From an uncultured Tepidisphaeraceae bacterium (GTDB lineage: Bacteria; Planctomycetota; Phycisphaerae; Tepidisphaerales; Tepidisphaeraceae), in NCBI GenBank assembly GCA_964398315.1, contig CAYNMV010000029.1:1-47690 (forward strand): a DNA stretch of 47,690 nt, read 5' to 3'. Every line of letters starts with the position of its first letter. Positions within the stretch are counted from its first letter, which is position 1. A program made the translations under genes and the position numbers. A model generated the notes under the pieces. That model was not told the origin of the DNA. It saw nothing but the letters and a program-made list of their open reading frames with translations, and did no database searches. Shown one piece after another: positions 22,190 to 42,154 of the stretch.

Positions 22190-22276
22190 ACGCCATCCTC
22201 CCCCGGCCGGGTTCATCCCGGCCGCGGGCGCTGATGAACCGGTGAACGATCAACCCCGCGACCGCGAGGTACCGCA

Positions 22277-23659: not shown

Positions 23660-23726
23660 GTCGCCGAATATGGGCGGCCACGCGGCGCCGGCCCTGAGCC
23701 TCAAGACTTAACGGCGGGGTGCACTT

Positions 23727-25667: not shown

Positions 25668-25687
25668 CGCTGCGGCGCCTGAACGAC

Positions 25688-25738
25688 GGGCTGTCGCCTG
25701 GTGAGGAAATCTCACCGGGCGACAGCCCGCTTTTTTTG
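25688..25738 (+). terminator. Rho-independent terminator: a 12-bp perfect stem (CGGGCTGTCGCC/GGCGACAGCCCG) enclosing an inner 6-bp stem (GGTGAG/CTCACC), followed by TTTTTTT
   Basis: Read directly from the sequence. Located 21 nt after the stop codon at 25665-25667. Confidence 0.75.
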
Positions 25739-26009
25739 CCCGACCGCGGAATTTGTCTTTTTGGACTGGACAGACCGCGCCACGCATGTTATACTTATGT
25801 TAGGAATACCCGGGCCGGCGCCGGTCTGGGTATTCCAGCCGTGTTGGTCCAATGCCCTGTCATTGCCCCGCGCATGGCAGGTGTGATGCTTCATTTCTTG
25901 CAACTTGCAGCAGGGTTCGCCTGCTCGGCGCGGGGGTACGGGCTTTGCGACTGGTTTTGGCCGCGCCTGCGGGCACTCCTGCCCGCCGCGCCAGAGATGG
26001 AGGTCGCCC

Positions 26010-27143
26010 ATGTCTGTTGCCGACAACGGATGGTTTACCGAACTGCTGATTGAGCGCACACCCCCCTGCATTTCGATCTACCAACCCCTTTACCGTAACG
26101 CTCCGCCGGCCCATGAGAATCCGGTCCGCTTTCGCAATCTTGCCAAGCGGGCGGAGGAGCTGCTGGCCAAGGGATATCCGCAGGTGGATCGCCGGCGGAT
26201 GATCCGCGAGCTGATCGATCGCGTGGATCATCACGAGTTCTGGACCGGCCCGCGGGATGGCCTGGCCGTCTTCCACGCCCCGGGGTATTTCCGCATGGCT
26301 GAGCTGCAACAGCAGGTGGATGAGCTGGTTACGGTTGCCGACAGCTTCCACATCAAGCCGCTGATCCGCATCCTGCAAAGCGCTGACCGCTATCACGTGC
26401 TCTGTTTCGCGCTGCGCGATGTGCGGCTGTATGAGGGATCACGGCACGGGTTGCGCGAGATGGAATTGCAGAATGTCCCGCGGGATATCAACCGCGCTGT
26501 CGGCCTGGTGCACCGCCAGCCTGGCACCCCCGCGCGCAACCGGGCGGCAGGACCTGCCCCCACGACGGATGGAGAGACCGGATTCGCCGCAATATCCATC
26601 GAGCACTTCATCCGCGCGGTGGATGAGGCGATCTGGGAGCAGATCTCCCGCCGCACCCCCCTGCCGTTGATCCTGGTGTGCGATGGGCAGTATCACGACC
26701 TGTGGCGTCGGATCAGCAGAAACCGGATGCTGCTCAAGGACCGCATGGTTGGCCTGGTGCCCAGCCATGTGCCGATCGACCGGCTGAAACAGGAAGCCTG
26801 GCGGGCATATGAGCCGATCTACAACCGCCGGTTGCATGGGCTGATCGATCAGTTCAAGGTTGCCCGGGCGCACCGTACCGGCTCCGATCAGATCGCCGAG
26901 GTGGCCCAGGCCGCTGCCGATGGGCGGGTTGGGTCACTGCTGGTGGCCGAGAATGCCCGCATCCCCGGCCGACTGGATCGAGCCCACGGCCGAATCGAGC
27001 AGGCCAGCGCGGTCGGGCCGGATGCGGATGATGTGGTGGATGAGCTGGCCGAGATGGTACTGAGGATGGACGGCCAGGTCATCGCGCTGCCGCCCGAGCA
27101 GATGCCCACCGAGGCCGGCATCGCAGCCATCTATCGCTACTGA
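26010..27143 (+). CDS. eRF1/Pelota-like domain protein (bacterial archaeo-eukaryotic release-factor-like, baeRF family). The assignment is tentative.
   Basis: C-terminal region GRVGSLLVAEN...VVDELAEMVLRMDGQVIALPPEQM...AGIAAIYRY resembles eRF1/Pelota domain 3, which ends ...GGIGAILRY. A central VLCFALRDVRLYEG segment is also present. Start taken at MSVADNGW (the track ORF begins at 25905). Confidence 0.45.
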   Translation: MSVADNGWFTELLIERTPPCISIYQPLYRNAPPAHENPVRFRNLAKRAEELLAKGYPQVDRRRMIRELIDRVDHHEFWTGPRDGLAVFHAPGYFRMAELQQQVDELVTVADSFHIKPLIRILQSADRYHVLCFALRDVRLYEGSRHGLREMELQNVPRDINRAVGLVHRQPGTPARNRAAGPAPTTDGETGFAAISIEHFIRAVDEAIWEQISRRTPLPLILVCDGQYHDLWRRISRNRMLLKDRMVGLVPSHVPIDRLKQEAWRAYEPIYNRRLHGLIDQFKVARAHRTGSDQIAEVAQAAADGRVGSLLVAENARIPGRLDRAHGRIEQASAVGPDADDVVDELAEMVLRMDGQVIALPPEQMPTEAGIAAIYRY

Positions 27144-27341
27144 GGTTTGCAGGCTGAAGTGACAGGTGAAGCCCAAACAGGCACCACCGCGAAGATGAGC
27201 ACGTGATGGATGCTGCCCGCCTGGCATCTTCGCCTTGCGTGGCACGGAATGGCAGGCCGTACTGATGGGGGTTCCCCCCGCAAAGGCCGCCAACCCGTGC
27301 CACCGGGGGGGCCGCTGCGTGGTATTGGCCCGCGACCTGCG

Positions 27342-28202
27342 CTAGCTCAATGCGACAAACTTGGTGATGCGATCCACCACCGTATCCATCTCATATTCCC
27401 GGTCGAGTTGCAGCGGGACGAACACGCCCTGGTTGTGATCAGAGGCGACAATCAGGTGGCGGCGGCCGTTGACGGCATACCCCATGTCCTGCGGCTGATG
27501 GCCGGTTATCAGCAGCTTGGCATCGACGTTGGCGGCAAAGATTTCCGTGCCCTGGGGCGTAATCCCCCGGCCCCAGATCAGTTGATACACCGGACCGGTC
27601 CGGCGCTGATAATCAGCCCCGGTGAGGGGGCGATTGAAGACCGTGTAGTCAAACATGTCCACCTGCGCTTCGCTTGGCAGGCTGTGGCTGAAGAACAGCC
27701 CGTTGGGCGCCCGGATCGCCAGCGGCAACGACAGCAGGAACTCGCTGATAGCCGCCGACACCAGCTCTGCCTGCGACCCGAAATCGCGGACCACGGCGGC
27801 GGTAAAGGCCTCGCAGACGCTCTGGCCGGCCTTCATGATCCCTTCGCCGTAGATCTGGGCCAGGTCGTGGTTGGCCAGCAGGAAGTGTACCTGCTCGGGA
27901 TAGTCGGCCTTCAGCTCCGCGGCCTGCACGAGCATCCGCCACGAGTCCTCGGCTCCGTTGGTGTCGTAGTGGTCGCCGTGAATCAGCTCATGGAGCACGA
28001 GATGGCGCTGCGGATTATTCGGCAGGTCGGCCGCGCGGATCAGCTTGTCAAAATTGCGGCGGTGATCGTGCAGATCGCCGGTCATCCAGACCTCACCCTC
28101 GCCCGGCAGGTGCACCACCTGCATGACGCGCATGGATGAAATCTGGTTTTCCTCCGCCGCCATCTGGAGGGTTTCAATGATTTGCGTTGCATCAGCTTTC
28201 AT
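27342..28202 (-). CDS. Metallophosphoesterase (calcineurin-like / PPP-type phosphatase fold)
   Basis: MTGDLHDH (GDxHG-like), HELIHGDHYD (GDxxDRG-like) and LLANHDL (GNHE-like) metal-binding blocks. Confidence 0.6.
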   Translation of the reverse strand: MKADATQIIETLQMAAEENQISSMRVMQVVHLPGEGEVWMTGDLHDHRRNFDKLIRAADLPNNPQRHLVLHELIHGDHYDTNGAEDSWRMLVQAAELKADYPEQVHFLLANHDLAQIYGEGIMKAGQSVCEAFTAAVVRDFGSQAELVSAAISEFLLSLPLAIRAPNGLFFSHSLPSEAQVDMFDYTVFNRPLTGADYQRRTGPVYQLIWGRGITPQGTEIFAANVDAKLLITGHQPQDMGYAVNGRRHLIVASDHNQGVFVPLQLDREYEMDTVVDRITKFVALS

Positions 28203-28350
28203 AGGTACAAACGCGCAATTCTAGGGGGACAGGGGCATGAATGCCATATCTTTGCCGGCCCGCAACGGCATCATCGGGCGCCGCCGACTATCTTTCAAAA
28301 CTGCTGAGGGGATTAGATCGCTTCCCGGCCATCCCCTATACTCGCTGGCG

Positions 28351-29574
28351 ATGTCCCAGATGCTGCCGAAGGTCGTTGATCCTGCCCTTTTGCCCATTCG
28401 CGACAAGGTTCTGCAAGGCGAGCCGCTGAGCCTCGCCGACGGGCTGAGCCTGTTCGCCTCGCGCGATATCCACGGCATCGGGCGGCTGGCCAACCACGTG
28501 CGCACCCGCCTGCATGGCAACAAGGTCTACTACAACCGCAACCGCCATATCAACTACACCAACGTCTGCGCCCTGTCATGCAAGTTCTGCAGCTTCTACC
28601 GCAAGCGCGGGGAGGAAGGCGCCTATGAGATGCCGGTGGAGCAGGTGGTGCATGTGGCCCGCAAGGCGGCCGACAGCGGCGCCACTGAGGTCCACATCGT
28701 CGGCGGGCTGCATCCCTGGCGCAAGTTTGACTACTACCTGGACATGCTCCGCGGCATCCGCCAGGAATGCCCCGAACTGCATATCAAGGCCTTCACCGCC
28801 ATCGAGATCGTCCATTTCACCCGCATCGCCCGCATGAGCATTGCTGAAGTGCTTACCGCACTGCGCGAGGCGGGCCTTGGCTCGCTGCCCGGCGGCGGGG
28901 CCGAGATTTTCGATGAGCGCGTGCATGCCGAGGTGTTCAAGGGGAAGGTCGGGGCCAACAAGTGGTTTGAGGTCCACCGCACCGCCCATTCGCTGGGCAT
29001 CCCCTCCAACGCAACGATGCTCTACGGCCACGTTGAGACGGTCGAGGAGCGCGTGAAGCATTTGATTGCACTGCGCGAATTGCAGGCCGAGAGCCTGGCC
29101 GCGGCAAGCAGCGGGCAGCCGGCAGCCGCAGATGGCTCATCGCCCATTGCCCCTGCCCGGGCCGCCTTCAACTGCCTGATCCCGCTCTCATTCATCCCCG
29201 AGGGCTCGGAACTGGGGTACCTGCCGGGCAATACCGGGCTGAGCGACCTGAAGACGCTGGCCATTGCCCGCCTGATGATCCCCAACATCGCCCACATCAA
29301 GGCGTTCTGGATCATGCAGGGCATCCACCTGGCCCAGCTTGCCCTCGACTGGGGTTGCGATGACCTGGACGGCACCGTCGTCTGGTACGACATCACCAAG
29401 CGCGAGGGCCACGGCAGCACCCACCAGGAACTGCACCTGTCGGACATCCAGCGCATCGCCCGCGAGGCGGGCAAGGTGCCGGTTGAGCGGGATACCCTCT
29501 ACAACGAAGTCCGGCGTGATCCGATCACCGATCGGCCCCTGCCCAGTGCCGCGCCGGTGGGAGCCGGTCGTTGA
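28351..29574 (+). CDS. Futalosine-pathway radical SAM enzyme (MqnE aminofutalosine synthase / MqnC family) for menaquinone biosynthesis
   Basis: YTNVCALSCKFCSFYRK CxxxCxxC cluster motif, and VHIVGGLHP, characteristic of the CofH/MqnC/MqnE group. It contains a short Ala/Ser-rich insertion. Start at ATG 28351 (the track starts at 28237). Confidence 0.7.
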   Translation: MSQMLPKVVDPALLPIRDKVLQGEPLSLADGLSLFASRDIHGIGRLANHVRTRLHGNKVYYNRNRHINYTNVCALSCKFCSFYRKRGEEGAYEMPVEQVVHVARKAADSGATEVHIVGGLHPWRKFDYYLDMLRGIRQECPELHIKAFTAIEIVHFTRIARMSIAEVLTALREAGLGSLPGGGAEIFDERVHAEVFKGKVGANKWFEVHRTAHSLGIPSNATMLYGHVETVEERVKHLIALRELQAESLAAASSGQPAAADGSSPIAPARAAFNCLIPLSFIPEGSELGYLPGNTGLSDLKTLAIARLMIPNIAHIKAFWIMQGIHLAQLALDWGCDDLDGTVVWYDITKREGHGSTHQELHLSDIQRIAREAGKVPVERDTLYNEVRRDPITDRPLPSAAPVGAGR

Positions 29575-29623
29575 GATCGGGCCGCGCGATGCTGCTGTGC
29601 TGGCCATTAACGATCCGCATCGC

Positions 29624-31444
29624 CTACTCCAGCGTGTACCAGTAAACCTCCACCCGGCGGTTTTTCTCGCTCTTGGCAGCGCGAACGTCATCGGAATCGG
29701 ACGGCAGGATCTGCTCGGCCGGCTCTTCCCAGCCGCGGCCAAGAATCTCCACCCGCGCCGCATCCACCTTGTGACGCTCCAGCAACAGGCGCTGCACCTC
29801 GGCGGCGCGCTCGCGGCTGAGTTTCATCGCCTCGATGGCCATTCGGCGCACCATCCCCTCACCCCCCTGCTGGCGGAACTCCTCCATTCTCGCGTTATCC
29901 ACATGCCCCCGCAGCAGCACCTTCGATCCCGGCGACACCTGCAACAGCTTCTGGATATCCTCCAGCTTCTCGAGGTTCTCCGCCTGCTGCAGATCGAGCT
30001 GCGCGCTGTTGGCGACGAAATGGAAGCGGATGTCCTTGCTCAGCAGCGGATCGGCCTCCAGCGGCTGGTTGGCGCCGCCGGATCGCACCGGGGCGATGGC
30101 CACCTGCTCGTTTTGGTATGCCCCGGTCTGTGCGATCGCCTCCAGGGCGGCCGGCTGGTAGAAGTGGCGGCTGTCCACCGGATTGCGCACCAGGTCGCCA
30201 TAGGCCAGAATGGCTGCGCTGTAGATGCCGTCAAAGCTGCCGGCCGCATCGATCGCCCCGCTGAAAAAGGCCTGGTTCTCCGGCAGATTGGACAGGTGAA
30301 CCCGGCTCAGTTCGTCCCTGGCTTTCTCGCGCGTCCACCGGCCCGGATCATCGGCCTCATAGACCGTGTTGAATGCCGCCACGATCGTATCGAGATGCTG
30401 ATCGGGCCCGGCCCGCACCATGCGGTTGCCTTCCAGCAGGCCATGCACCAGCCCGCGCACCATCTCGGGATGCTGCTCGGCAAAGCCACGATTGACGATC
30501 AGGATATCGGCGACAATCAGCAGGTTGCGGTTGGTGGTCAGGATCCTGGCCTTGCCGTCAGATCCCTCCGCCACCTCGGTTGTCTTGGGCGCCCAGGTCA
30601 CGCATCCGGCCAGGCGCGTATCGCCGGCCGCCAGGGCGCTGGCAAACGTGTCGCCGGCAACAAACGCATCCTCGCAGAACAGCAGGTTGATGCGCTCGGG
30701 ATCGGGTCGGTCATCGGCATCAGCCAGCACATTCACCCCGATGCCCGCCTCCTGCGCCAGGTAGCGGATGAAAAACTCCGCCTCGGTAAACTGGCTGGCC
30801 GTCAGGATTTGCCCCTTGAGCTGGTTGATGCGGTTGATGTTGCTGCGCACGACGATGCCATCCGCTCCGCGCGAGAAGGCGATCTGGGCCGGCACGACCA
30901 CGTTGAACTGCCGGCCAAAAACCGCCAGCACATCCACGGTCGTCGCCGACGCCGCCAGCTTGCCGCTGTTCAGCTTGTCCCAGCTCTCCTCCTCGCTGAG
31001 AGTCAGGCGCACTTTGAAGCCGTAGTTTCTGGCGAAGAAGGAATTGTCATTCGGCTCCAGTCCGCCGTTGGCGACGATCAGCCCCGCGTAGCCGGGATAT
31101 TCGCTCAGCTCCACCTCGATGATCTTGTCCTCTCCCACCGGGAACGGCTGCGGCGGCGCCAGTTGCGGCACGGCGGTTTTGGCGGGTATCACGCCTTCCA
31201 GTTCGATCCGCGCACCGGTGCGCTGCGCCCCGGCGGCCTGCCCGCCGCCGGCGCCATCCGGCGCCTGGGCCACATCACTACCACTGGGCGCCTGGGCTTC
31301 CTGGCGTGCGGGCGGTGCGGCCTGGTCGCCATCGCGCACCATGAGCCACACACCCAGCCCGAGCAGCGCAACGATCATCAGGAACGAGAGAATCTTCCCC
31401 ACCGGTGTCAGTCCCGCGCTGTTCGCATCTCGCATCACATGCAC
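29624..31444 (-). CDS. Membrane-anchored fusion of an NMT1/SsuA-like periplasmic substrate-binding domain to a C-terminal OmpA/MotB peptidoglycan-binding domain
   Basis: N-terminal TM (ILSFLMIVALLGLGVWLMV). Central region matches ABC nitrate/sulfonate/taurine-type binding proteins (EVELSEYPGYAGLIVANGGLEPND...FKVRLTLSEE). C-terminal OmpA_C hallmarks are present (LLRGHVD...SRERAAEV...NRRVEV). Confidence 0.65.
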   Translation of the reverse strand: MHVMRDANSAGLTPVGKILSFLMIVALLGLGVWLMVRDGDQAAPPARQEAQAPSGSDVAQAPDGAGGGQAAGAQRTGARIELEGVIPAKTAVPQLAPPQPFPVGEDKIIEVELSEYPGYAGLIVANGGLEPNDNSFFARNYGFKVRLTLSEEESWDKLNSGKLAASATTVDVLAVFGRQFNVVVPAQIAFSRGADGIVVRSNINRINQLKGQILTASQFTEAEFFIRYLAQEAGIGVNVLADADDRPDPERINLLFCEDAFVAGDTFASALAAGDTRLAGCVTWAPKTTEVAEGSDGKARILTTNRNLLIVADILIVNRGFAEQHPEMVRGLVHGLLEGNRMVRAGPDQHLDTIVAAFNTVYEADDPGRWTREKARDELSRVHLSNLPENQAFFSGAIDAAGSFDGIYSAAILAYGDLVRNPVDSRHFYQPAALEAIAQTGAYQNEQVAIAPVRSGGANQPLEADPLLSKDIRFHFVANSAQLDLQQAENLEKLEDIQKLLQVSPGSKVLLRGHVDNARMEEFRQQGGEGMVRRMAIEAMKLSRERAAEVQRLLLERHKVDAARVEILGRGWEEPAEQILPSDSDDVRAAKSEKNRRVEVYWYTLE

Positions 31445-31657
31445 CTCCCGAGGATTGACAGGAGCATCACGGCTGGATCGGAGCCATCAACGCGACCGGC
31501 CGATCCACCGCCCCATTGCCGGCAGTGTACCGCAGGGGGCAGGCATATTCACACCGCCGATATGCCGTGAATGTCCCGCGCAGACAGGGCGCAATCCACC
31601 ACGCGCACGCGCTGGTCTGCGTAACAGGGAATACAACCTGACCGGGGGTGATTGGCC

Positions 31658-32599
31658 TTATCGACTCGCAGCGTGCGATAGACATGCAGCGCGCGGCCGC
31701 CGGCGGGCCGCGGCAAACAGTGCGGCCAGCGCCAGCACGCCCGCACTGGCGGGTTCGGGAGCCTGGTAGACCCGAACATAATCCACCAGCATGTTGGTGG
31801 TGCTGGTGTCGCGATCGCCGTAGCCGCCAAGCGGGATATCGCCGGCCCAGCCACCATCTTCAACCAGCGTGCTGAGAGAGATGTACTGCTCGGTTTGCGA
31901 GATGGGGGTTGTGCGGTGCCAGATTTCCTGCCCGTCGAAATAGAACGTGTAGCTGTCGGGGGTCCAGAGCAGGGCATAGGTATTCCAGGTGCCGTTGCTC
32001 AACCCCGCCAGCGGCCCGTGCGAATCGCCGATGCTCTTGTGATGCTGCCCATAGCCATCCCAGTGGATGGCGGTGTAAACATCGCTGCGGCGGTCCCGGC
32101 CCTGGCCATCCACAGCGCGGTGCTCGACGATATCGATCTCGGTCCCGGAGACGGCCGGGTTGCCGATCTCCTTGGTGATGGTCGGTGACATCAGCCAGAA
32201 GGCCGAGTACGCGCCCGGCGAGGTATTGAACTGGATTCTCGCCTCGAAGTAGCCGTACTTGAACAACTGAGTCTGCTTGGTGGCCAGCACGGCCACGTGG
32301 TGATCGTAGTCCGTGCCTTCCAGCGCGGTGAAGGTGGTGATCTTCAGCATCCCGCCGCCCACGCTCACGGCTTCCATTGTGTTGTAGGAATCGCCCCAGT
32401 CGCCGGGCTCGTTGATATGCCACTTGCTCTGGTCCAGCGCTGAGCCATCAAACTCATCCTGCCAGACCAGGTGATAGCCCTGCGGCGCCGCATGCACCGG
32501 CAAGGCAAACAGGCCACCCACCGCAAACAGGCCACCCACCGCCGCGCTCATGCATTTCTTCCATCCCATGCGACGGAATGGTAGCCGTCGCTTGCTCAT
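31658..32599 (-). CDS. Glycoside hydrolase family 16 (laminarinase / beta-glucanase-like) with a signal peptide and a C-terminal PEP-CTERM sorting signal
   Basis: GH16 catalytic motif ExDxxE in GTEIDIVEH. The C-terminus PEPASAGVLALAALFAAARRRPR has the PEP-TM-Arg cluster organisation of PEP-CTERM. The start is ambiguous (M9, M19 or M25 of the track ORF). Confidence 0.75.
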   Translation of the reverse strand: MSKRRLPFRRMGWKKCMSAAVGGLFAVGGLFALPVHAAPQGYHLVWQDEFDGSALDQSKWHINEPGDWGDSYNTMEAVSVGGGMLKITTFTALEGTDYDHHVAVLATKQTQLFKYGYFEARIQFNTSPGAYSAFWLMSPTITKEIGNPAVSGTEIDIVEHRAVDGQGRDRRSDVYTAIHWDGYGQHHKSIGDSHGPLAGLSNGTWNTYALLWTPDSYTFYFDGQEIWHRTTPISQTEQYISLSTLVEDGGWAGDIPLGGYGDRDTSTTNMLVDYVRVYQAPEPASAGVLALAALFAAARRRPRAACLSHAASR

Positions 32600-32711
32600 C
32601 CGCAAGACAAATCTTGCATCCAAACGGGCGTTAGAAGCAGGCTGAGGTGGCAGCCTCGCCAGCGCTATTAGGGATTACCCCCGTTCGCGGGTACGATCAC
32701 GGCAACCAATC

Positions 32712-35210
32712 ATGGGGGATCTGGACGAACTGGCCATTCTCGTCGATCAGCAGCGTGCCGAAGGCGGCGGCGCGCAGGGGCTGTGTGCCGGCTGCGGCTA
32801 TCGGCTGAGGGGTCTGCCCGATGCCACCTGCCCCGAGTGCGGCCGGCCATTTGATCCCCACAACCCCGCCACGATGAACCTGAGCGGCCGGCCCTATGGC
32901 CCGCTCGCCCGCGTTCTTTTTGCCCCACCGGCGCGGGTGCTGGCCATTGCCGCCGTATGCATTTTCCTCTGGCATGGGTGGCTGGCCCACCTGCCCTCGC
33001 GGCCCAGACCAGCCCACCTGTTCCACGTCCATGTGGCCTGGACGATCCTGCTGATTACGGTTGGGCTGCTTATGCTGCTGCGCCATCGCGCGATCAAGCG
33101 CCTGCGCCCGCCGGCGGACCTGCGCGGCTCGATCCGCTCCCTCTGGCTCGTGCCTGTGCTGTTCATCCTGATGATGAGCCTGGCCGGCACCTCACTCCCC
33201 TTCCGTGCGGTCTTCTGGATCAGCCGGCCATTCCTCGATCGCTTCGTCGCCGAGATCACCAGCCAGCCGCTGCGAATGGACTATGCCGACCGCTCCATCG
33301 GCCTCTTCTCCGCGACGAGCATCCATGCAACCTTCGACGAGGTTGCGTTCTGGTTCACGCCCACTGGCACGGGCCTGGTGTATGCCCGTCGGCCGGCCGG
33401 CGAGCAGGATCCGCCCGGGCTGTGGCGCACAGCGGTCATCCCGCTGGGCGGCGGCTGGCGCATGGTGAGGAACAGCCAAACCACCAGGATCGCCGCACAG
33501 TACCGCGCCCTGGAGCAGTTGGCCGATGATCCGGCACTGGCCCGCCAGCAGATACTGTTGCTGGCCGATACCCTGCGGCTGCCGAAGCTGGCATATCCCC
33601 ATCCGCAGGAGGCCGGCCTGTACGACACCCCGCCGCGGCCAGCATGGCACGGCACACCGGAGATCGTGGCGCACCAAAGGCCGCCTCAGCCCGGGATATT
33701 TCCCGGACTGTTACGGCCCGATCTCCGCGCGGTCATTCAGTTGGGCAAGGATGCCGAGCCGCTGCTGCGCCAGTTGATGAACGACCCGCTGGCCTCAGCG
33801 CGACTCAACGGCGTGATTGCGGCAATGGAGATCGGCCCGGAGGCGATCGGACTGCTGCCGGACCTGGTGATGCGGCTGAGCGATGCCGATGGCAGTGTCC
33901 GCGCGTTTGCCGCCGCAGCGCTGGGCGCATTGGGTCCATCGACCCACCCGGCCACGCCCGCCCTGCTGACGGCCCTGCGCGACAGTGATGCCGATGTGCG
34001 TTACAACGCCGCAGTTGCGCTGCGGCGGATCGCGCCGCGCTGGGAAGACTATCCGCGTCTCTTTCCTGAAGTGCTGGCCGAGCTGATGGACGATCCGCGT
34101 ACGCGCCCCTCTGCGTTCGCTACCGGCATCCTGGCCCAGCGGGCAACCCTGGCGCACAACGATCCCACCCTGACCCGCATTACCAACGAAGGAACGCGCT
34201 GGCAGTTGGGGCAACTGCTGGCGCAAGGCCACCTGCCGCCACCACGACCGCCGGGGGATCATACCGCCAGAAGTGCCCGCCGCGATGATCCGCCCGCCAG
34301 GCGCCCCGGGGAGATCGAGCGGCAGGTGCAGGAGGCGATCGACATCATCGAAACCCACGCCGGCCGGCAACCCCTTCAACCGGCTGCCGTAGCGCCTGTT
34401 GAGCGCAGCAGGCCGGGTAATTCGAACTGGGACGTTGACCAGGCGCTGCGGACGTTGCGCGCGATTGGTCCCGATGCTGCGCCGGCAATCGAATCGCTGC
34501 TCTGGCTGGCGGAGGTCGATCCGTACTACTTCATGCGTGCGGACATCTATCAGGTTCTGATGCGCATCGGCCCCGCGGCCAGGCCGGCGGTGCCGCTGCT
34601 CCTGCGGGCGATGCGGCATCCGGCCAGGTCAAACCATCCCGCCCAGCCGGCAGCGCAGGTCTACATGATGCTGGCACGCGAGGATCGGGAACTGGCGCGC
34701 GAGTTGATGACGATCTTACCCACGCTCCCAGAGTATCAGCGCACTCAGGTCTTGCAGGAACTGCCCCGGCTTGGTCCGGCGGCGGAGGAAATCATGCCGC
34801 TGCTGCCGACGCTGCTGTTACACAGTCAATCGCAGCGCCAACTTGCCATCGGCATCATTGAACAGATCGGCCCGCCGGCGGCGCCGCTAGTCCCGGAGAT
34901 GGAACAGGCGATGCGGCACAATGGGAGTGTGAGTGGTCATGGCGCAGCGATGGCGCGGGCCCTGGGCGCGATCGGACCGATCCATCCGCGCGTCATTCCG
35001 ATCCTGATGGGCATGCTCGATGACTGGCCACCGGATCAATACGTGGCGGCCGAGGTGCTGGGCAGCTTCGGCCCGGCGGCCATTGAGGCAGTCCCGGTGC
35101 TGGAAAAGCATGCCCGTTTCGATCTGGACTGGCACATGCGGGCGGTTTGCCGCGCAGCGCTGGAGCGAATCCGCGGACCGGCCGAGCAGGCCATAGAGCC
35201 GATGCGTTAA
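32712..35210 (+). CDS. Membrane protein with an N-terminal zinc ribbon, several TM helices and C-terminal HEAT (PBS-lyase-type) repeats
   Basis: CAGCGYRLRGLPDATCPECGRPFD (CxxC...CxxC). Hydrophobic helices at aa ~85-190. Repeated ~31-aa units such as LPDLVMRLSDADGSVRAFAAAALGALGP and LLTALRDSDADVRYNAAVALRRIAP are typical of HEAT_PBS repeats. Confidence 0.6.
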   Translation: MGDLDELAILVDQQRAEGGGAQGLCAGCGYRLRGLPDATCPECGRPFDPHNPATMNLSGRPYGPLARVLFAPPARVLAIAAVCIFLWHGWLAHLPSRPRPAHLFHVHVAWTILLITVGLLMLLRHRAIKRLRPPADLRGSIRSLWLVPVLFILMMSLAGTSLPFRAVFWISRPFLDRFVAEITSQPLRMDYADRSIGLFSATSIHATFDEVAFWFTPTGTGLVYARRPAGEQDPPGLWRTAVIPLGGGWRMVRNSQTTRIAAQYRALEQLADDPALARQQILLLADTLRLPKLAYPHPQEAGLYDTPPRPAWHGTPEIVAHQRPPQPGIFPGLLRPDLRAVIQLGKDAEPLLRQLMNDPLASARLNGVIAAMEIGPEAIGLLPDLVMRLSDADGSVRAFAAAALGALGPSTHPATPALLTALRDSDADVRYNAAVALRRIAPRWEDYPRLFPEVLAELMDDPRTRPSAFATGILAQRATLAHNDPTLTRITNEGTRWQLGQLLAQGHLPPPRPPGDHTARSARRDDPPARRPGEIERQVQEAIDIIETHAGRQPLQPAAVAPVERSRPGNSNWDVDQALRTLRAIGPDAAPAIESLLWLAEVDPYYFMRADIYQVLMRIGPAARPAVPLLLRAMRHPARSNHPAQPAAQVYMMLAREDRELARELMTILPTLPEYQRTQVLQELPRLGPAAEEIMPLLPTLLLHSQSQRQLAIGIIEQIGPPAAPLVPEMEQAMRHNGSVSGHGAAMARALGAIGPIHPRVIPILMGMLDDWPPDQYVAAEVLGSFGPAAIEAVPVLEKHARFDLDWHMRAVCRAALERIRGPAEQAIEPMR

Positions 35211-35624
35211 CCCCCCGCCGCTCCGATTGGAAATAAAGCCAAATCTTCTAACGCATATCGATTTGGGTAGTTGCCAGCATGGCGGTACGATACACGCGAT
35301 CGGCTGGCCGATCCGTGGTTCAGGTCTCACGCCCCATCAACAACAACCCCGGGGGTGCAGATGGCACGAGCGGGCGATAAGCGCGAACGAGGCAGGCAGG
35401 CGCGGAAGCCTCTGTCATCGCCCATGCCGCCCCCACTGCCGCCGCAATCGCTTCCATTGACGGTGGATCAAGCCGCGGGGGTTGAGGATCGGCACGATGC
35501 GCAGCTGCTTCACCTGGCCGAGCAGGTGCGCCATGTTCCATCGCCTGCGCCGGAGCGATTGCCGCGCTTTGAACTGGCCATGCCGTCTCACAATCAACTC
35601 AACCCAACCGAAAGGGGCACCGTT

Positions 35625-37508
35625 ATGTTGCTGGTGATCTTGTTCCTCGTTGGCACGGCGATGGCGTTCGGCGTCTGGTTCGTGCCGAACATGGGCGAGC
35701 TGGCCAAGTGGGTCTTCTGCGGCCTGGGCACCCTTGCTGCGCTGCTGGCGTTCATCGCCTCGCTCATCCTCAAGCTCTATCGCAAGGCGTCGGCCAACAT
35801 GGCGTTTGTCCGCACTGGCATGGGGGGCGTGAAGGTGGTGCGCGATGGCGGCACGTACGTGGTGCCGGTGGTGCACCAGGTGATCCCGGTCAGCCTGGAG
35901 ACCATGCGGCTGAATGTCGAGCGCCGTGGCCCGCACGCCCTGATCACCAAGGACAACCTGCGCGTGGACCTGTCGGCCGAGTTCTACATCAAGGTGCAGG
36001 CCAACACCGATGATATCCTGCAGGCCGCACGCTCGCTGGGCGGGCGCAACGTCCAGCCGCAGGCGGTGTCGGAGCTGGTGCAGGAGAAGCTGGTCAGCGC
36101 CCTGCGTACGGTGGCGGCCACCAAGGACCTGGTTGAGCTGCACTCCAAGCGCGATGAGTTTGCCAGCAGCGTGCAGCAGATCGTCACCCATGACCTGGCC
36201 AGCAACGGCCTGACGCTGGAATCGGTGACGATCTCCGCCCTGGACCAGACCGATCCCAGCCAGCTCCAGGAGCGCAACGTCTTCGACGCCCAGGGGCTGC
36301 GCAAGATCGCCGAGATCACCCAGCGGGCGAAGGTGGAGCGCAACGAGATCGAGCAGGAAAGCCAGCAGCAGATCGTGCAGAAGAATGTCAGCACGCGCAA
36401 GAAAGTGCTGGACATGGAGCGCGATCAGGCCGAGTTCGAGGCCGAGCAGCGCACCAAGGTTGCCAACGTGCGGGCAGCGCGCGAGCGCGAGGTGGCGGAG
36501 TTCAAGATCCAGCAGGATGAGGCAATCGCCAAGCGCGAGATCGAGAAGCAGAAGCTGGTCGAGATGACGGAGGTGGAGCGTGCATTGGCGGTGGAACAGG
36601 CCAACATCGCCAAGCAGGTGGCCCTGATCGAGAAGCTCAAGGAGCAGGAGACGGAAAACATCCTGAAAAAGCAGGCAGTGGAGGTGGCCGAGCGGGGGCG
36701 CGAGGTGGCGATCGCCGAGAAGGAGCGCGAGCGTGCCGCCGCCCAGGCCGAGGTGCTGGCCGCCGAGGCCGAGCGCGAGAAGGCCAAGCAGTCGGTCGTC
36801 ACCGTGCAGGTGACCAGCGAAGCCGAGCGCGAAGCCCAGAAGAAGCTGATCGCTGCACGGCAGTCGATTGAGGAAAACAAGATCCGCCAGCAGACGGCGG
36901 CGGATGTGCAGGCGTACACCATCGTGAAGGACGCCGAAGGCGAGCGCAAGGCCGCCGACCTGCAATACGAGGCCAAGCTGCGGCTGGCCGAGGCCGAGGC
37001 CCAGGCCGCGGCCCGCCAGGCCGAAGGCGAACGCGCGGTGAAGATGGTCGATGTGACCGTGGAGCGCGAGCGGGTGAACGTGGAGCAGGCCCGGGTCGAG
37101 GTGGAACGTCAGAATCTTGCCAACAAGAGCGAGTTCGAAACCGCCGCCCTCAAGTTCGAGCTGGAGAAGCTGCGGATCGAGGCCGAGAAGGAGTTCCGCA
37201 TCGCCGCCGCCACCGCGATGGCGAACATGTACGCCAAGGCCGAGATGAAGATCTTCGGCGACCCGAGCACAATGGCACGGATGAGCGAGCAGTTCATGCG
37301 GGCGGCCTCGCTGGGCACCGCGGCCGAGGGGCTGTTGCATACCCTTCCGCCCGAGGCACAGCAAAAACTTGAAAGCCTGCTGAGCAGCGTCGCCTCGCAG
37401 TTTGCCGCCCCCGGAAGCCCCGGCCTGGGCACCCCCGCCCCGGTCGAACCGGCCAGCGCTGATGGCGACGGCATATCCGCCGATCCCGAGGCAGGGATGC
37501 AGCGCTGA
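35625..37508 (+). CDS. Flotillin-like SPFH/band-7 domain protein (YqiK/FloA-type) with a long Glu/Ala-rich coiled-coil
   Basis: N-terminal TM, SPFH core (VRTGMGGVKVVRDGGTYVVPVVHQVIPVSLETMRLNVERRGPHALITKDNLRVDLSAEFYIKV) and an extended EAEREKAKQ-type repeat region. An AAAGGGG RBS lies 8 nt upstream of ATG 35625 (the track ORF begins at 35271). Confidence 0.8.
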   Translation: MLLVILFLVGTAMAFGVWFVPNMGELAKWVFCGLGTLAALLAFIASLILKLYRKASANMAFVRTGMGGVKVVRDGGTYVVPVVHQVIPVSLETMRLNVERRGPHALITKDNLRVDLSAEFYIKVQANTDDILQAARSLGGRNVQPQAVSELVQEKLVSALRTVAATKDLVELHSKRDEFASSVQQIVTHDLASNGLTLESVTISALDQTDPSQLQERNVFDAQGLRKIAEITQRAKVERNEIEQESQQQIVQKNVSTRKKVLDMERDQAEFEAEQRTKVANVRAAREREVAEFKIQQDEAIAKREIEKQKLVEMTEVERALAVEQANIAKQVALIEKLKEQETENILKKQAVEVAERGREVAIAEKERERAAAQAEVLAAEAEREKAKQSVVTVQVTSEAEREAQKKLIAARQSIEENKIRQQTAADVQAYTIVKDAEGERKAADLQYEAKLRLAEAEAQAAARQAEGERAVKMVDVTVERERVNVEQARVEVERQNLANKSEFETAALKFELEKLRIEAEKEFRIAAATAMANMYAKAEMKIFGDPSTMARMSEQFMRAASLGTAAEGLLHTLPPEAQQKLESLLSSVASQFAAPGSPGLGTPAPVEPASADGDGISADPEAGMQR

Positions 37509-37537
37509 GGTGCCTGCGGGCAGGTTGCCGTGGCCCT

Positions 37538-37567
37538 GGTGCACTGTTCCACGTGGAACACTGCACC
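37538..37567. promoter_or_regulatory. Imperfect 30-bp palindrome GGTGCACTGTTCCACGTGGAACACTGCACC (core TGTTCCACGTGGAACA), copy 1
   Basis: Read directly from the sequence. Located 30 nt downstream of the flotillin stop and 98 nt upstream of the channel gene ATG. Confidence 0.6.
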
Positions 37568-37624
37568 AGCCGGGCCACGGGAGCCGCGATGACGGGCATC
37601 CGGGCGGGTTGATGCGTGTTCACT

Positions 37625-37648
37625 GCACTGTTCCACGTGGAACAGTGC
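37625..37648. promoter_or_regulatory. Near-perfect palindrome containing the perfect 22-bp CACTGTTCCACGTGGAACAGTG, copy 2 (same 16-bp core as copy 1)
   Basis: Read directly from the sequence. Its centre lies 84 bp from the centre of copy 1. It ends 16 nt before the ATG of the channel gene, just upstream of the GGGAGGG RBS. Confidence 0.6.
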
Positions 37649-37664
37649 GCAGCCGGGAGGGCGC

Positions 37665-38111
37665 ATGGGCAGTTGGCGAGACGATCTGAACTATGGGCTG
37701 GCCGCGTTCGGGCTGAAGCTGCCCGAGCGCCTGTCGCTGCATGACCTGACCGCCCACCTGGATACGGCCCCGGGCAAGAGCATCGCCCAAGTGATCGCCG
37801 CCGGGAGCGTGCTGTTTTTCCTGGCCGAGCGGCGGCATAATCCGGCGGTGCGCAGCGTGTTCGATGCCGCGGTGTATTGCGCTGCCTGCCTGAGTGTCGG
37901 CGATTCGGGTATTTTCCCCACCACGCCGGCCGGAAAGATGATCGGCACGCTGCTGATGACCTACGGCCCTTCCCTTGCCCAGCGGGCACTGGATCGCCCC
38001 GCCCGTGCCGACTCGGGCCTGCCCAGCGGCGATGATACCCAGCAGCAGATCCTCCAGACGCTGCGCAGTATCCTTGAGCGCCTGCCGACTCCAGATACCA
38101 CCGCCCGCTGA
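37665..38111 (+). CDS. Small two-TM ion-channel pore-domain protein (Ion_trans_2-like) with a non-canonical SVGDSG selectivity filter
   Basis: SVLFFLAERRHN...AVYCAACLSVGDSGIFPTTPAGKMIGTLLMTYG aligns with TM1, pore helix, filter and TM2 of KcsA/NaK-type channels (ALWWSVETATTVGYGDLYPVT..GR). The GYG is replaced by GDS, as in non-selective NaK/CNG-like filters. Confidence 0.5.
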   Translation: MGSWRDDLNYGLAAFGLKLPERLSLHDLTAHLDTAPGKSIAQVIAAGSVLFFLAERRHNPAVRSVFDAAVYCAACLSVGDSGIFPTTPAGKMIGTLLMTYGPSLAQRALDRPARADSGLPSGDDTQQQILQTLRSILERLPTPDTTAR

Positions 38112-38128
38112 CCGAAGATGCAACAGCC

Positions 38129-39151
38129 GTGATGAAGATCCTGCCCGATGTTTCTCTCCGCCCGTACAACACCTTCGGCATCGAGGCCCGCGCCCGGTGG
38201 CTGGCGGCGTTCCGCTCGGCTGATGAGTTGCGCGAGCTGCTGGCGCACTTTCGCAGCAATCATGTGAATCGCCGGCTCATCCTCGGCGGCGGCAGCAATA
38301 TCCTGCTAACAGGTGATTTCGACGGTGCCGTACTGAAGAACGATGTGCCGGGCATGCACGTCATCAGCGAAGATGAGGAGCATGTTTACGTCACGGCCGG
38401 CGCCGGCGAGAACTGGCATCGCTTTGTCACCTGGTGCATCGGCAACGGCTTCGGCGGCGTGGAAAATCTCGCGCTCATCCCCGGCAACGTCGGCGCTTCG
38501 CCGATGCAGAATATCGGCGCCTACGGCGTTGAGATCCGCGATGTCTTTCATGAGCTTCAGGCCCTGCACCTGGCCGAGGGGCACATTCGCACCTTCACGC
38601 TGGCCGAGTGCGCCTTCGGCTACCGCGACAGCGTTTTCAAGAACCGCTATCGCGACCAGTACGCGATCCTGAACGTCACCTATCGCCTGAGCAAGCGCCC
38701 CCGCTTCAACACCACCTATGCCCCCCTGCGGCAGGAGTTGGAGCGCATGGGCATCGACGATTTATCGCTCCAGGCTGTTGCGCAGGCGGTCATCAACATC
38801 CGCACCAGCAAGCTCCCCGATCCCACCCAGATCGGCAACGCGGGCAGCTTTTTCAAGAACCCGACCCTCCCCAACGACCAGTTTGCCGCACTGCGCCAGA
38901 AGCACCCGGATGTGCCGGCCTATCCGGTTGACCCGCATCACACCAAGGTCCCCGCCGGCTGGCTGATCGAGCAAGCTGGCTGGAAGGGCTTTCGTGCGGG
39001 TGATGCCGGCTGCTACGCGAAACAAGCCCTGGTCCTGGTCAACTACGGCCAGGCCAGTGGTGCAGAGATCCTCGCCCTCAGCCAGCGCATCGCCGCATCG
39101 GTTCATGAAACATTCGGCATCACACTGGAACGCGAAGTAAACGTGATCTGA
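38129..39151 (+). CDS. murB: UDP-N-acetylenolpyruvoylglucosamine reductase
   Basis: NTFGIEARA...[10 protein letters not shown]...[27 protein letters not shown]...SVFK: the FAD-binding and MurB C-terminal domains. Confidence 0.9.
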   Translation: [340 protein letters not shown]

Positions 39152-39180
39152 TCAAGGCAAACAGCGCATCACACTGCCGC

Positions 39181-39265
39181 CTGATGTGGTACGGCTTGAG
39201 CCGTAGTATTGCTTCTGATGTGACACGGCTTCTGATGTGGCACAGGGTCTGATGTGGCACGGGTT
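39181..39265. repeat. Five tandem 17-nt units of consensus CTGATGTG(G/A)(C/T)AC(G/A)GG(C/G)TT (one degenerate), followed by the small hairpin CACGGGTT-TTC-AACCCGTG (39258-39276)
   Basis: Read directly from the sequence. Located in the convergent intergenic region between murB (+) and the aminotransferase gene (-). Confidence 0.6.
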
Positions 39266-39468
39266 TTCAACCCGTGCGAAGTGCGCCGCCCACACCGACT
39301 GCCAACCCGCAGCACACACTGCATCCCCTATCCTGCCAAGCCCCCACAATCGCCACCAGATGTGTCGCATCCAGCAAAACGATTGAACGCAGATGGGACA
39401 AACCCACCTGCGTTCAGTCGTTTCTTCGAATCTCCGCGGCCTGGGCCTCTCACCCGCCGCGTCCCGGC

Positions 39469-40614
39469 TCAAAACAGCTTCGCCAGCACCTGCTGGGCCG
39501 CGGCCACGCCCTTGCCAAACTCGACCTTCTGGCCGAGCTTGTGCAGCACGTGCTCGATGGCGGCGACGACCGCGAGGGTGTCGTAGGCATCGGTATAGCC
39601 CATGTGGTTGACGCGGAAGATCTGGCCTTCCATCGTGCCCTGGCCGCCGGCGATATGGATGTTGTGCCGGCTCTTGAGCTGGCCGCGGAAGTCCTTGTCG
39701 GTCACGCCGGCAGGATAGCGCACGGCGGTCACCGAGTCGGCCGGGGTTTGGCTGAACAGTTGCAGACCCAGCGCCTGCACGCCAGCCCGGAACGCCTCGG
39801 CGTTGGTCTGGGTGCGCTTCCAGACGCCCTCGATGGTCTCTTCCTTCAGCATCTTCAGGCTGACCAGCGCGGCATCGATGAGCGTGTTGGCCGGGGTGAA
39901 GGGCGTGTCATCGTTCTCGATGCTCTTGCGGTATTTCGACAAATCCAGATAGAACTCGCGCACGCCCTTGTTCGCCTCGACCGCCTTCCAGGCACGGTCG
40001 CTGAGGGCGACAAAGCCCAGGCCCGGCGGGAGCATCAGCGCCTTCTGGCTGCCGGTGATAGCCACATCCACGCCCCACTCATCCATCTTGAACGGGAACG
40101 CCCCGATGCTGGTGATGCCATCGACGATCAGCAGCGTGTCGCCCGAGGCCCGCACGGCCTTGCCGATGCCGGCCAGGTCGCAGGTGGTGGCGGTGCTGGT
40201 TTCGCTGTGGACAAGGATGACGGCATCGTAGTTGCCGCCCTTGAGCCTGGCCGCGATCTCGTCGGGAGTGACGTGCGTGCCATATTCCTTTTTCAGTTCC
40301 TCCACCTCGATGCCATACGCCTTGCACACCTGCGCCCAGCGCTCGGCGAACTTGCCGTTGGAGACATTCAGCACCTTCTTGCCGGGGGCCAGCGTCGAGA
40401 CAATGCCCGCTTCGGCGGCGGCGGTGCCCGAGCCGGTGATGGTCAGCACGGTCTGGCGGGTCTGGAAGACATACTGCAGGATCTGCTGCACTTCCTTGAA
40501 CATCGCCCGGAATTCGCCGGTGCGGTGATGATGCACCGGTTCGGCGAGCTTCAGCAGGGTCGCCTCGGGAACGCTGGTGGGGCCGGGAGTGTAAAGACGA
40601 TATTTCATCAGCAT
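39469..40614 (-). CDS. Class V aminotransferase (serine-pyruvate / alanine-glyoxylate aminotransferase-like, PLP-dependent)
   Basis: YTPGPTSVPE N-terminus and the ITGSQKALMLPPGLG PLP-lysine motif. Start at MLMKYRLYTPGP (the track ORF extends 19 codons further). Confidence 0.85.
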   Translation of the reverse strand: MLMKYRLYTPGPTSVPEATLLKLAEPVHHHRTGEFRAMFKEVQQILQYVFQTRQTVLTITGSGTAAAEAGIVSTLAPGKKVLNVSNGKFAERWAQVCKAYGIEVEELKKEYGTHVTPDEIAARLKGGNYDAVILVHSETSTATTCDLAGIGKAVRASGDTLLIVDGITSIGAFPFKMDEWGVDVAITGSQKALMLPPGLGFVALSDRAWKAVEANKGVREFYLDLSKYRKSIENDDTPFTPANTLIDAALVSLKMLKEETIEGVWKRTQTNAEAFRAGVQALGLQLFSQTPADSVTAVRYPAGVTDKDFRGQLKSRHNIHIAGGQGTMEGQIFRVNHMGYTDAYDTLAVVAAIEHVLHKLGQKVEFGKGVAAAQQVLAKLF

Positions 40615-40721
40615 GTGGATGCTCTCACGTAAGGTAAAACCTGTCTCACCACAGGAGATACGGAAATACAAATAAAGAGTCGGTTGGCTCCGCGGCTCCG
40701 TGGTTCATATCCATGGCCTGA

Positions 40722-41498
40722 TCAGGCCGTTTCCCACGCTTGGCGCAGGAACTTGACGATTCGCGGGCTGTCGTTGGTCAGGTCGAAGGCCTTGCATTCG
40801 ACACTGATCACGCCCTTGTAGTTGCCGGCTTTAAGGACGCGGAAGAAGGGAACATAGGGGCTTTCATCGGGCGCGCCTGATTCGCCGGGGGCGGTGCGGT
40901 TGACCTTGTCGGCAACGTGGACGTGGCCGATCCAGCGCATCGCTTTCTCGAGGTTTTTCAGCGGCTCATTTTCGACCCAGAAGTGGTAGCTGTCCACCAG
41001 GCACAGGAAATTGTCGTGGTTCAGCTCGCGGACATAGGTCATCGCCTCCTCGACGGAGTTGATGATGTTGCACTCTTTGCGATTCAGGGGCTCGGCGACG
41101 ATCACCACATCATGCCGGGCGGCGATGTCGGCCGACATCTGGAGGAAATCCAGGATCTGGCGGCGGGCCTCCTGGCGGTCAAACCCATCGGGCACCTGCC
41201 GGGCGCCGCCGCTGCCGAACACCAGCGTCCTGACCCCCGTTTCTCCGGCGCGCTGCAGCACATTGCCCATGTAGTCGCGCAGGATGTTCAGGTCGGCGGT
41301 CGGGCCGGTGATCTTGAGGTGGCCGGGCACCAGGCAATTGGCTGCCAGTACCGGCAGCGCTGCATTCTTGACGGGTGCGGGGTCATAGCTGGCATCTTCC
41401 CCCTTGAACAGGGCCTGAACGTTGCCTTCCACAAAATCCCATCCACCCGCCTTCGCCTGGGCGGCCTTGTCCGGCGCTGTGCAAATCCCGAATCGCAT
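40722..41498 (-). CDS. Sugar phosphate isomerase/epimerase (xylose-isomerase-like TIM barrel) family protein
   Basis: Length and motif pattern (VVIVAEPLN, CLVDSYHFW, GHVHVAD) are typical of AP_endonuc_2 TIM-barrel proteins. Confidence 0.65.
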   Translation of the reverse strand: MRFGICTAPDKAAQAKAGGWDFVEGNVQALFKGEDASYDPAPVKNAALPVLAANCLVPGHLKITGPTADLNILRDYMGNVLQRAGETGVRTLVFGSGGARQVPDGFDRQEARRQILDFLQMSADIAARHDVVIVAEPLNRKECNIINSVEEAMTYVRELNHDNFLCLVDSYHFWVENEPLKNLEKAMRWIGHVHVADKVNRTAPGESGAPDESPYVPFFRVLKAGNYKGVISVECKAFDLTNDSPRIVKFLRQAWETA

Positions 41499-41743
41499 GG
41501 TGTCTCCTTAGACAATTAAGACCCCGGATAATAGAGGATTCGAACGGCGGATGCCAAACCGGCAAGCGCGGATGGCCGGTCATTGACGCCCGCGATGTGG
41601 GTTTTGCATGCGGTATCCAGGGCCGATATGGGCACCCCCATGGCGATTGCGGCGGCATAAGCCGCTCGGTTTTCTGTTTCTTGCCTCTTTCCCTTTGCAG
41701 GCCACGGCATCGTCCCCATAATGCTGGGCAAAGGAGAAGTGAA

Positions 41744-42154
41744 TTGGCTTACTGGCTGCTGAAAACCGAACCCGATTGCTATAGCTGGTCCGACCTGGAG
41801 CGAGACAAGAAGACCGCCTGGGATGGCGTGACCAATGCCCTGGCCCTCAAGCACATCCGCAGCATCAAGAAAAACGACCTGGCGGCGATCTATCACACCG
41901 GCGGCGAGCGCGCGGTCATCGGGGTGGCCAGGGTTATCTCCAGCCCCTACCCCGATCCCAACGAGGCAGATGAGAAACTGGTGGTAGTGGATGTGAAGCC
42001 GGTGAAGAAGCTCAAGCAGCCGGTAACGCTGTCGGATTTCAAGGCCGATCCTGCATTTGCCGGATGGGATCTGCTGCGCATCAGCCGCCTGAGCGTCGTC
42101 CCCGTGCCTGAGCCGATGTGGAAACGGATGATGCAACTGGCCGAGGAAGGGTAG
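41744..42154 (+). CDS. EVE (PUA-like) domain protein
   Basis: (M)AYWLLKTEPDCYSWSDLERDKKTAWDGV...AIYHTGGERAVIGVARV is the canonical EVE-domain opening. A TTG start with an AGGAGA RBS 6 nt upstream is proposed (the track ORF starts at 41597). Confidence 0.7.
   Translation: MAYWLLKTEPDCYSWSDLERDKKTAWDGVTNALALKHIRSIKKNDLAAIYHTGGERAVIGVARVISSPYPDPNEADEKLVVVDVKPVKKLKQPVTLSDFKADPAFAGWDLLRISRLSVVPVPEPMWKRMMQLAEEG

Follow-up and report, generated by a model that had tools for sequence, protein, structure and literature searches.

Two copies of a palindrome in the 156-bp spacer between a flotillin-like gene and a channel-like gene of an uncultured planctomycete are, judging from their sequence, very probably chromosomal parS, that is, functional loading sites for ParB (Spo0J). 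The parS element is already known and understood; here it is duplicated in tandem and unannotated. In the window, by which we mean the whole 47,690-bp stretch of DNA that was analyzed, the 16-bp sequence TGTTCCACGTGGAACA is present in two exact copies, with agreement among direct reading of the sequence, a motif search and a repeat finder. The original prediction of two CACGTG-centred palindromes 84 bp apart (start to start) is thereby confirmed. Both copies are located in the spacer (37509-37664), downstream of the flotillin (Band_7) gene and upstream of the Ion_trans_2-like gene, and the features of the region are as follows.

35271 to 37508, plus strand: upstream gene, encoding an SPFH/Band_7 (flotillin-like) protein (Pfam PF01145, E = 1.9e−20)
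37536 to 37569, no strand assigned: extended 34-bp palindrome of copy 1, an inverted repeat with 17-nt arms that are 94% complementary (one mismatched pair, C37544/C37561)
37545 to 37560, no strand assigned: parS copy 1, 16-bp core TGTTCCACGTGGAACA, exact match, identical to parS2/parS3 of P. aeruginosa (PMC4368675 Table 1)
37625 to 37648, no strand assigned: extended 24-bp palindrome of copy 2, GCACTGTTCCACGTGGAACAGTGC (GCAC-parS-GTGC), a 100% inverted repeat
37629 to 37644, no strand assigned: parS copy 2, 16-bp core TGTTCCACGTGGAACA, exact match, with its end 20 nt upstream of the ATG at 37665
37665 to 38111, plus strand: downstream gene, encoding a 148-aa relative of small Ion_trans_2 K+ channel proteins, whose homologues carry PF07885

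The motif is rare in the window. A mismatch-tolerant search of all 47,690 bp returned no third copy of TGTTCCACGTGGAACA with two or fewer mismatches, and the sole further match has three mismatches and lies inside a gene. By chance, 0.14 matches per window are expected, even if up to three mismatches are allowed. Half-sites of the motif occur at chance level. A generic abundant repeat, the outcome that had been named as refuting a regulatory role, was not what we found: the window holds two adjacent copies, in keeping with parS, of which a genome usually has a small, clustered number.

The palindrome of copy 2 is perfect, as had been described, but it extends over 24 nt and not 22. Its end is located 16 nt upstream of the ATG at 37665, also as described, and this ATG is the true start of the gene, since the N-terminus M-x-W-[RK]-D-D-L-N-Y-G-L-A-A-F-G is conserved among homologues of the channel-like protein. 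In copy 1, weaker outer arms prolong the 34-bp palindrome.

In ParABS systems, each 16-bp parS, a centromere-like site, is recognized by the helix-turn-helix domains of a ParB dimer. On binding CTP, the dimer forms a closed clamp that slides onto neighboring DNA, and the partition complex that results is transported by ParA and brings about the loading of the SMC condensin. Both cores in the window match the perfect chromosomal parS at 16 of 16 positions. The same perfect palindrome, TGTTCCACGTGGAACA, constitutes parS2 and parS3 of P. aeruginosa (PMC4368675 Table 1). The cores also fit the general chromosomal consensus TGTTNCACGTGAAACA, which is listed together with TGTTCCACGTGGAACG, the parS of M. 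xanthus (PMC7022226 Table 1). In P. putida, parS is TGTTCCACGTGGAACA as well, and the papers in which we found this string are all on ParB/parS. For genome-wide counting of parS, the site pattern is TGTTNCACGTGNAACA. The proposal that the pair serves a cooperatively binding dimeric regulator therefore survives in part: the sites would be those of a dimeric helix-turn-helix protein, whereas an operator of a local regulon is not supported, the 16-mer being the universal parS. It is because the 16-mer is parS that it is widespread across bacteria.

Compared with the chromosomal parS of the B. subtilis Spo0J/parS type, of P. aeruginosa (parS2/parS3) and of P. putida, the window sites share the same 16 bp with a perfect dyad, the same intergenic placement, and the occurrence of more than one site in a tight cluster that is rare in the surrounding DNA. 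They differ in having no parAB or oriC marker within −37/+10 kb, in forming an 84-bp tandem duplicate, and in that copy 1 lies inside a 92-nt imperfect palindrome.

Tandem duplication and the 84-bp spacing

The two parS copies are embedded in two abutting segments that resemble each other well beyond the palindromes.

37515 to 37598, plus strand: duplication unit 1, 84 nt, identified by alignment to unit 2; parS with its flanks and a relic GGGAG-N5-ATG at 37579-37591
37599 to 37682, plus strand: duplication unit 2, 84 nt, identified by alignment to unit 1; parS with its flanks and the GGGAG-N5-ATG of the channel-like gene at 37655-37667

In a global alignment of the two units, 62 of the 90 aligned columns are identical (69%), a score that was reached by none of 3,000 flank shuffles (P < 1/3000). 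A local alignment of 35 nt runs from TGCAC through CAGCCGGG, and the 30 nt upstream of it are also similar (P = 0.0005). The AGCCGGG that had been noticed after each copy is part of this homology, with CAGCCGGG directly following both palindromes. The relic ATG of unit 1 opens a mere 7-codon ORF (37589-37612). Tandem Repeats Finder did not call the 84-bp duplication, and the homology of the units was shown by alignment with shuffled controls. The simplest history, we suggest, would be a tandem duplication of a segment of ~84 bp that carried parS, the ribosome-binding site and the start of the channel-like gene, the two units having since diverged. Such a duplication would account for both the exact 84-bp spacing and the similarity of the flanks.

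The distance had originally been interpreted as 8 helical turns, which would place both sites on the same face of the DNA and favor looping. Natural pairs of perfect parS give no backing to that interpretation. Among the matches listed, only 1 of 121 distinct pairs spaced 68 to 98 bp is at 84 bp, and 83 to 89 bp is the sparsest part of the spacing distribution. A 10.5-bp periodicity is not significant in these 121 listed pairs (Rayleigh test, P ~0.1), and their mean phase is 0.67 turn and not 0, a value that does not put the sites on one face. The 84 bp is better read as the period of the duplication.

parS and ParB in other genomes

With its flanks, the sequence forms a 25-mer (TGCAC-parS-STGC) that recurs in just 2 of 185,579 species genomes (one genome per species). 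In a Nitrospirota MAG (L123), it is located between rsmG and parA in an mnmE-mnmG-rsmG-parA-parB block, which is the classical origin-proximal arrangement, and in a Thermodesulfobacteriota genome (L124) parA-parB is found ~2.5 kb from the 25-mer. Each of the two genomes encodes a ParB with ParB_N, HTH_ParB and ParB_C domains, and each of the two loci has a second parS. The link between this sequence and parAB elsewhere was established directly, as were the sequence identity to parS, the rarity in the window and the duplication.

The 16-bp core is also found in viral DNA: TGTTCCACGTGGAACA is present in at least 120 IMG/VR viral contigs (L003 to L122 were fetched), which span 23 to 71% GC and carry mostly single sites in diverse contexts. 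Several of these contigs also have TGTTTCACGTGAAACA nearby. The wide range of GC content and the proximity of TGTTTCACGTGAAACA point to a universal protein-binding site and not to a lineage-specific repeat. A ParB-like ORF was found in only 4 of the 120 fetched viral stretches with TGTTCCACGTGGAACA, and many phage-like contigs have a host-type parS with no obvious ParB nearby.

Pairs of perfect parS that are 68 to 98 bp apart occur in more than 120 metagenome stretches (L133 to L252 among the matches listed). An ORF with the ParB box II (GERRxRA) is present in 13 of the 19 loci that, among the matches listed, extend for at least 3 kb to each side, and the distance from this ORF to the nearest parS is typically 0.3 to 2 kb. 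The metagenomic arrays have regular periods (37 to 40, 68 and 96 bp, among others), which indicates that parS is commonly duplicated in tandem. It is thus the norm for perfect parS to be tightly clustered, and the pair in the window is a small example; in M. xanthus, the cluster comprises 22 sites. Like the tandem arrays of M. xanthus and of the metagenomic loci L208, L244 and L251, the window has perfect sites tens of bp apart that reflect local duplication, but it has just two copies, and the pair is not beside parB.

Palindromy that continues past the 16-bp core is also frequent in clusters. Among the matches listed, 70 of 355 clustered metagenomic parS sites (20%) have at least 4 additional palindromic bp and 19 of the 355 have at least 7, with a maximum of 14; among the viral single sites listed, only 2 of 114 have at least 4. 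We had considered the long palindromes of the window as a special feature. They are rare in comparison with viral single sites but common among clustered chromosomal parS, and this candidate was rejected. In the flanks of the clustered sites, the fraction of complementary pairs is 0.59, 0.63, 0.48 and 0.36 at positions 1 to 4, often as AAA(A/T)...(A/T)TTT.

The genes around the pair point to a chromosome. Housekeeping genes in the window include murB, ndk and dtd, as well as genes for a miaB-like radical-SAM enzyme and an RNase D-like protein. Planctomycete-typical genes encode MqnC-like, GT87, DUF1080-type and HEAT/FHA proteins, and the nearest named homologues come from Tepidisphaeraceae and Humisphaera. 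This gene content suggests that the window belongs to the chromosome of a Tepidisphaeraceae-like (Phycisphaerae) planctomycete. We found no parA, parB, dnaA or gidA/B in the 47.7-kb window (Pfam; ParB HMM), no cluster of DnaA boxes (3 matches in the window versus 2.9 expected), and no switch of GC skew in the window. There is no parB within 37 kb on one side of the pair and 10 kb on the other, whereas most close pairs elsewhere are located at most 2 kb from parB.

Two other observations concern the same window. Positions 25905-27143 encode an eRF1-like protein of bacterial type (baeRF family 3), and a ubiquitin-conjugating (UQ_con) domain is present in the product of 3831-4514; both domains are unusual and have no bearing on the palindromes. 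The spacer between murB and a convergent aminotransferase gene (39160-39300) has 4 to 5 copies of CCACATCAG(A/G) on the minus strand, ~20 to 35 nt apart, which could represent either an array of binding sites or a small repeat.

The flotillin-channel spacer and alternative explanations

The coordinates of the flotillin-like gene are those of its longest ORF, and its true start is probably internal. The 148-aa channel-like protein itself has no Pfam match. In an alignment with its homologues, the filter SVGYGD is replaced by SVGDSG: the relatives have LSVGYGDIF at the K+ selectivity filter and this protein has LSVGDSGIF, while a 70%-identical homologue (P0002) has LNVGETGIR. Because the flotillin-channel gene pair is conserved in relatives with short spacers, the two genes are probably co-transcribed. 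Consensus scans of the spacer revealed no local promoter.

Conservation of the gene pair does not extend to parS. The closest relative in the databases has 69 to 70% protein identity, and in four distinct relatives that have the same flotillin-channel pair (46 to 70% protein identity) parS is absent within ±10 kb. No parS was detected in ~80 kb of the relatives' loci, nor upstream of the orthologous channel genes. The position of parS is lineage-specific, and there is no comparative support at this locus. Long hairpins are found in the flotillin-channel spacers of the relatives too, with sequences that are unrelated to the window element. Those of L126 and L128 recur elsewhere in their own loci, as REP-like repeats do. 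Repeats of this kind are lineage-specific and intergenic in these Tepidisphaeraceae relatives. In L126, the REP-like palindromes are at 9884-10000 and ~112-135, with a 37-bp perfect stem; in L128 they are at 9700-10000 and ~4355-4480; and the arms in L128 and L130 are rich in CACAGAG/CACGGAG. A conserved RNA hairpin across the relatives was considered and dropped, given that the hairpins are unrelated and have further copies in the loci that they come from. The spacer seems to be one that tolerates palindromes, rather than one that houses a conserved RNA structure. Compared with the REP-like repeats of L126 and L128, the window element likewise puts long palindromes into this spacer, but those repeats are dispersed, lineage-specific and unrelated to parS, whereas the window element is not dispersed.

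If transcribed, copy 1 would form the center of a stable RNA structure.

37509 to 37600, plus strand: imperfect hairpin, 92 nt, centred on parS copy 1 (if transcribed), fold −64.6 kcal/mol, z = −6.0

Its folding energy is the most negative among the 3′ flanks of the window's genes, and its z-score is the third lowest. The copy 2 unit folds no better than shuffled sequences (z = −1.5). Scans of 37000-38300 and 22000-41900 detected no intrinsic terminator at the spacer, and no T-run follows either hairpin. Elsewhere in the contig, which has 65% GC, a canonical T-tailed terminator is present on the plus strand at 25687-25737 (a 20-bp stem, then T7) and another T-tailed terminator is on the minus strand at 39416-39375. 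Searches against Rfam 15 returned only sub-threshold chance matches (20.9 bits versus 70 and 20.1 versus 35).

These data allow three alternatives to parS to be weighed. One is that the dyads act as RNA hairpins, with copy 1 as a 3′ terminator or stabilizer of the flotillin mRNA, copy 2 as a translational structure in a 5′ UTR, and parS as a secondary or dual function. The fold around copy 1, the long hairpins in the relatives' spacers and the probable co-transcription of the two genes all agree with it. However, the genome uses T-tailed terminators elsewhere and has no T-run here, the copy 2 unit is not unusually structured, no Rfam family matches, the hairpins of the relatives have unrelated sequences and are REP-like in L126 and L128, and a need for hairpins leaves two exact 16/16 matches to parS unexplained. 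The earlier suggestion of a flotillin terminator and a translational element is thus weak, and we consider RNA hairpins quite improbable as the primary function. That the element is a lineage-specific REP/MITE-like palindrome, resembling parS by chance, would be in keeping with its intergenic location, its palindromic sequence, its two copies and the REP-like palindromes in the same spacer of relatives. But the 47.7 kb contain merely two adjacent copies, and, apart from scattered GC-rich chance matches, the remaining 12-mers of the spacer are unique in the window. The 25-mer is found in just two other species genomes, which belong to other phyla and have it beside parAB, and the chance that the core of a REP palindrome matches parS exactly is ~1 in 65,000. 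We regard such a coincidence as exceedingly unlikely.

The remaining alternative is a pair of operators at which a local transcription factor other than ParB binds cooperatively and loops the DNA over 8 helical turns, thereby controlling the channel-like gene. Copy 2 is suitably placed, with the confirmed start codon 16 to 20 nt downstream of it, and identical dyads 84 bp apart are separated by ~8.0 turns. Yet a sequence that is exactly parS needs no other regulator, no transcription-factor gene flanks the locus, and the relatives have no such site in front of their channel orthologues. Moreover, the spacing is accounted for by tandem duplication, and the 121 listed natural pairs described above, with their single case at 84 bp, their nonsignificant Rayleigh test and their phase of 0.67 turn, speak against phased looping. 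Operators of this kind are, in our assessment, very unlikely. What weighs against the identification of the sites as parS is the lack of parA, parB and oriC markers in the window, most close pairs elsewhere being near parB; the absence of the sites from this locus in the closest relatives available; and the position of copy 1 at the apex of a 92-nt hairpin of unusual stability, a structure that parS function does not require. From established knowledge of ParABS systems, we infer a cognate ParB in this organism, binding of ParB to the two sites and their location in the origin domain; we likewise infer any effect on transcription.

Possible roles of the parS pair in a planctomycete chromosome

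As chromosomal parS, the two perfect sites 84 bp apart would provide two adjacent loading points for ParB, and bound or spreading ParB might modestly repress or obstruct the channel-like gene. Damping of this gene by ParB is conceivable because copy 2 is located 20 nt upstream of its start codon. There is a precedent in P. aeruginosa, in which ParB has been shown experimentally to repress promoters adjacent to the intergenic parS3/parS4 (PMC5521831). The window resembles that case in having a (near-)perfect intergenic parS just upstream of a gene; it differs in that no promoter was identified and that one transcript may cover both the flotillin gene and the gene downstream. One could conjecture a dual role, in which the pair loads ParB and also acts within the conserved flotillin-channel operon, either through ParB (as a switch or roadblock) or as RNA hairpins. 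This would couple the expression of a K+-channel homologue with a degenerate filter to the state of the partition complex, at a parB-distal centromere cluster in a planctomycete of the class Phycisphaerae. We think that such a dual role is unlikely.

For researchers of ParABS systems, the comparison offers two general points: among the matches listed, close pairs of parS show no preference for a helical phase, and clustered parS are often palindromic well past 16 bp. For annotation, recognizing parS guards against taking the sites for a gene-specific operator, a terminator or a new family of repeats. To our knowledge, there is no experimental cell biology for the Tepidisphaeraceae-like planctomycete lineage, and we know of no study of chromosome segregation in the class Phycisphaerae. 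In the planctomycete literature, we found mentions of plasmid ParAB only, and nothing on parS or chromosomal ParB. The two sites would mark where the partition complex nucleates, and probably also where SMC is loaded, on a Tepidisphaeraceae-like chromosome. The contig is therefore probably part of the origin domain, and the pair would give this lineage a useful origin-domain landmark.
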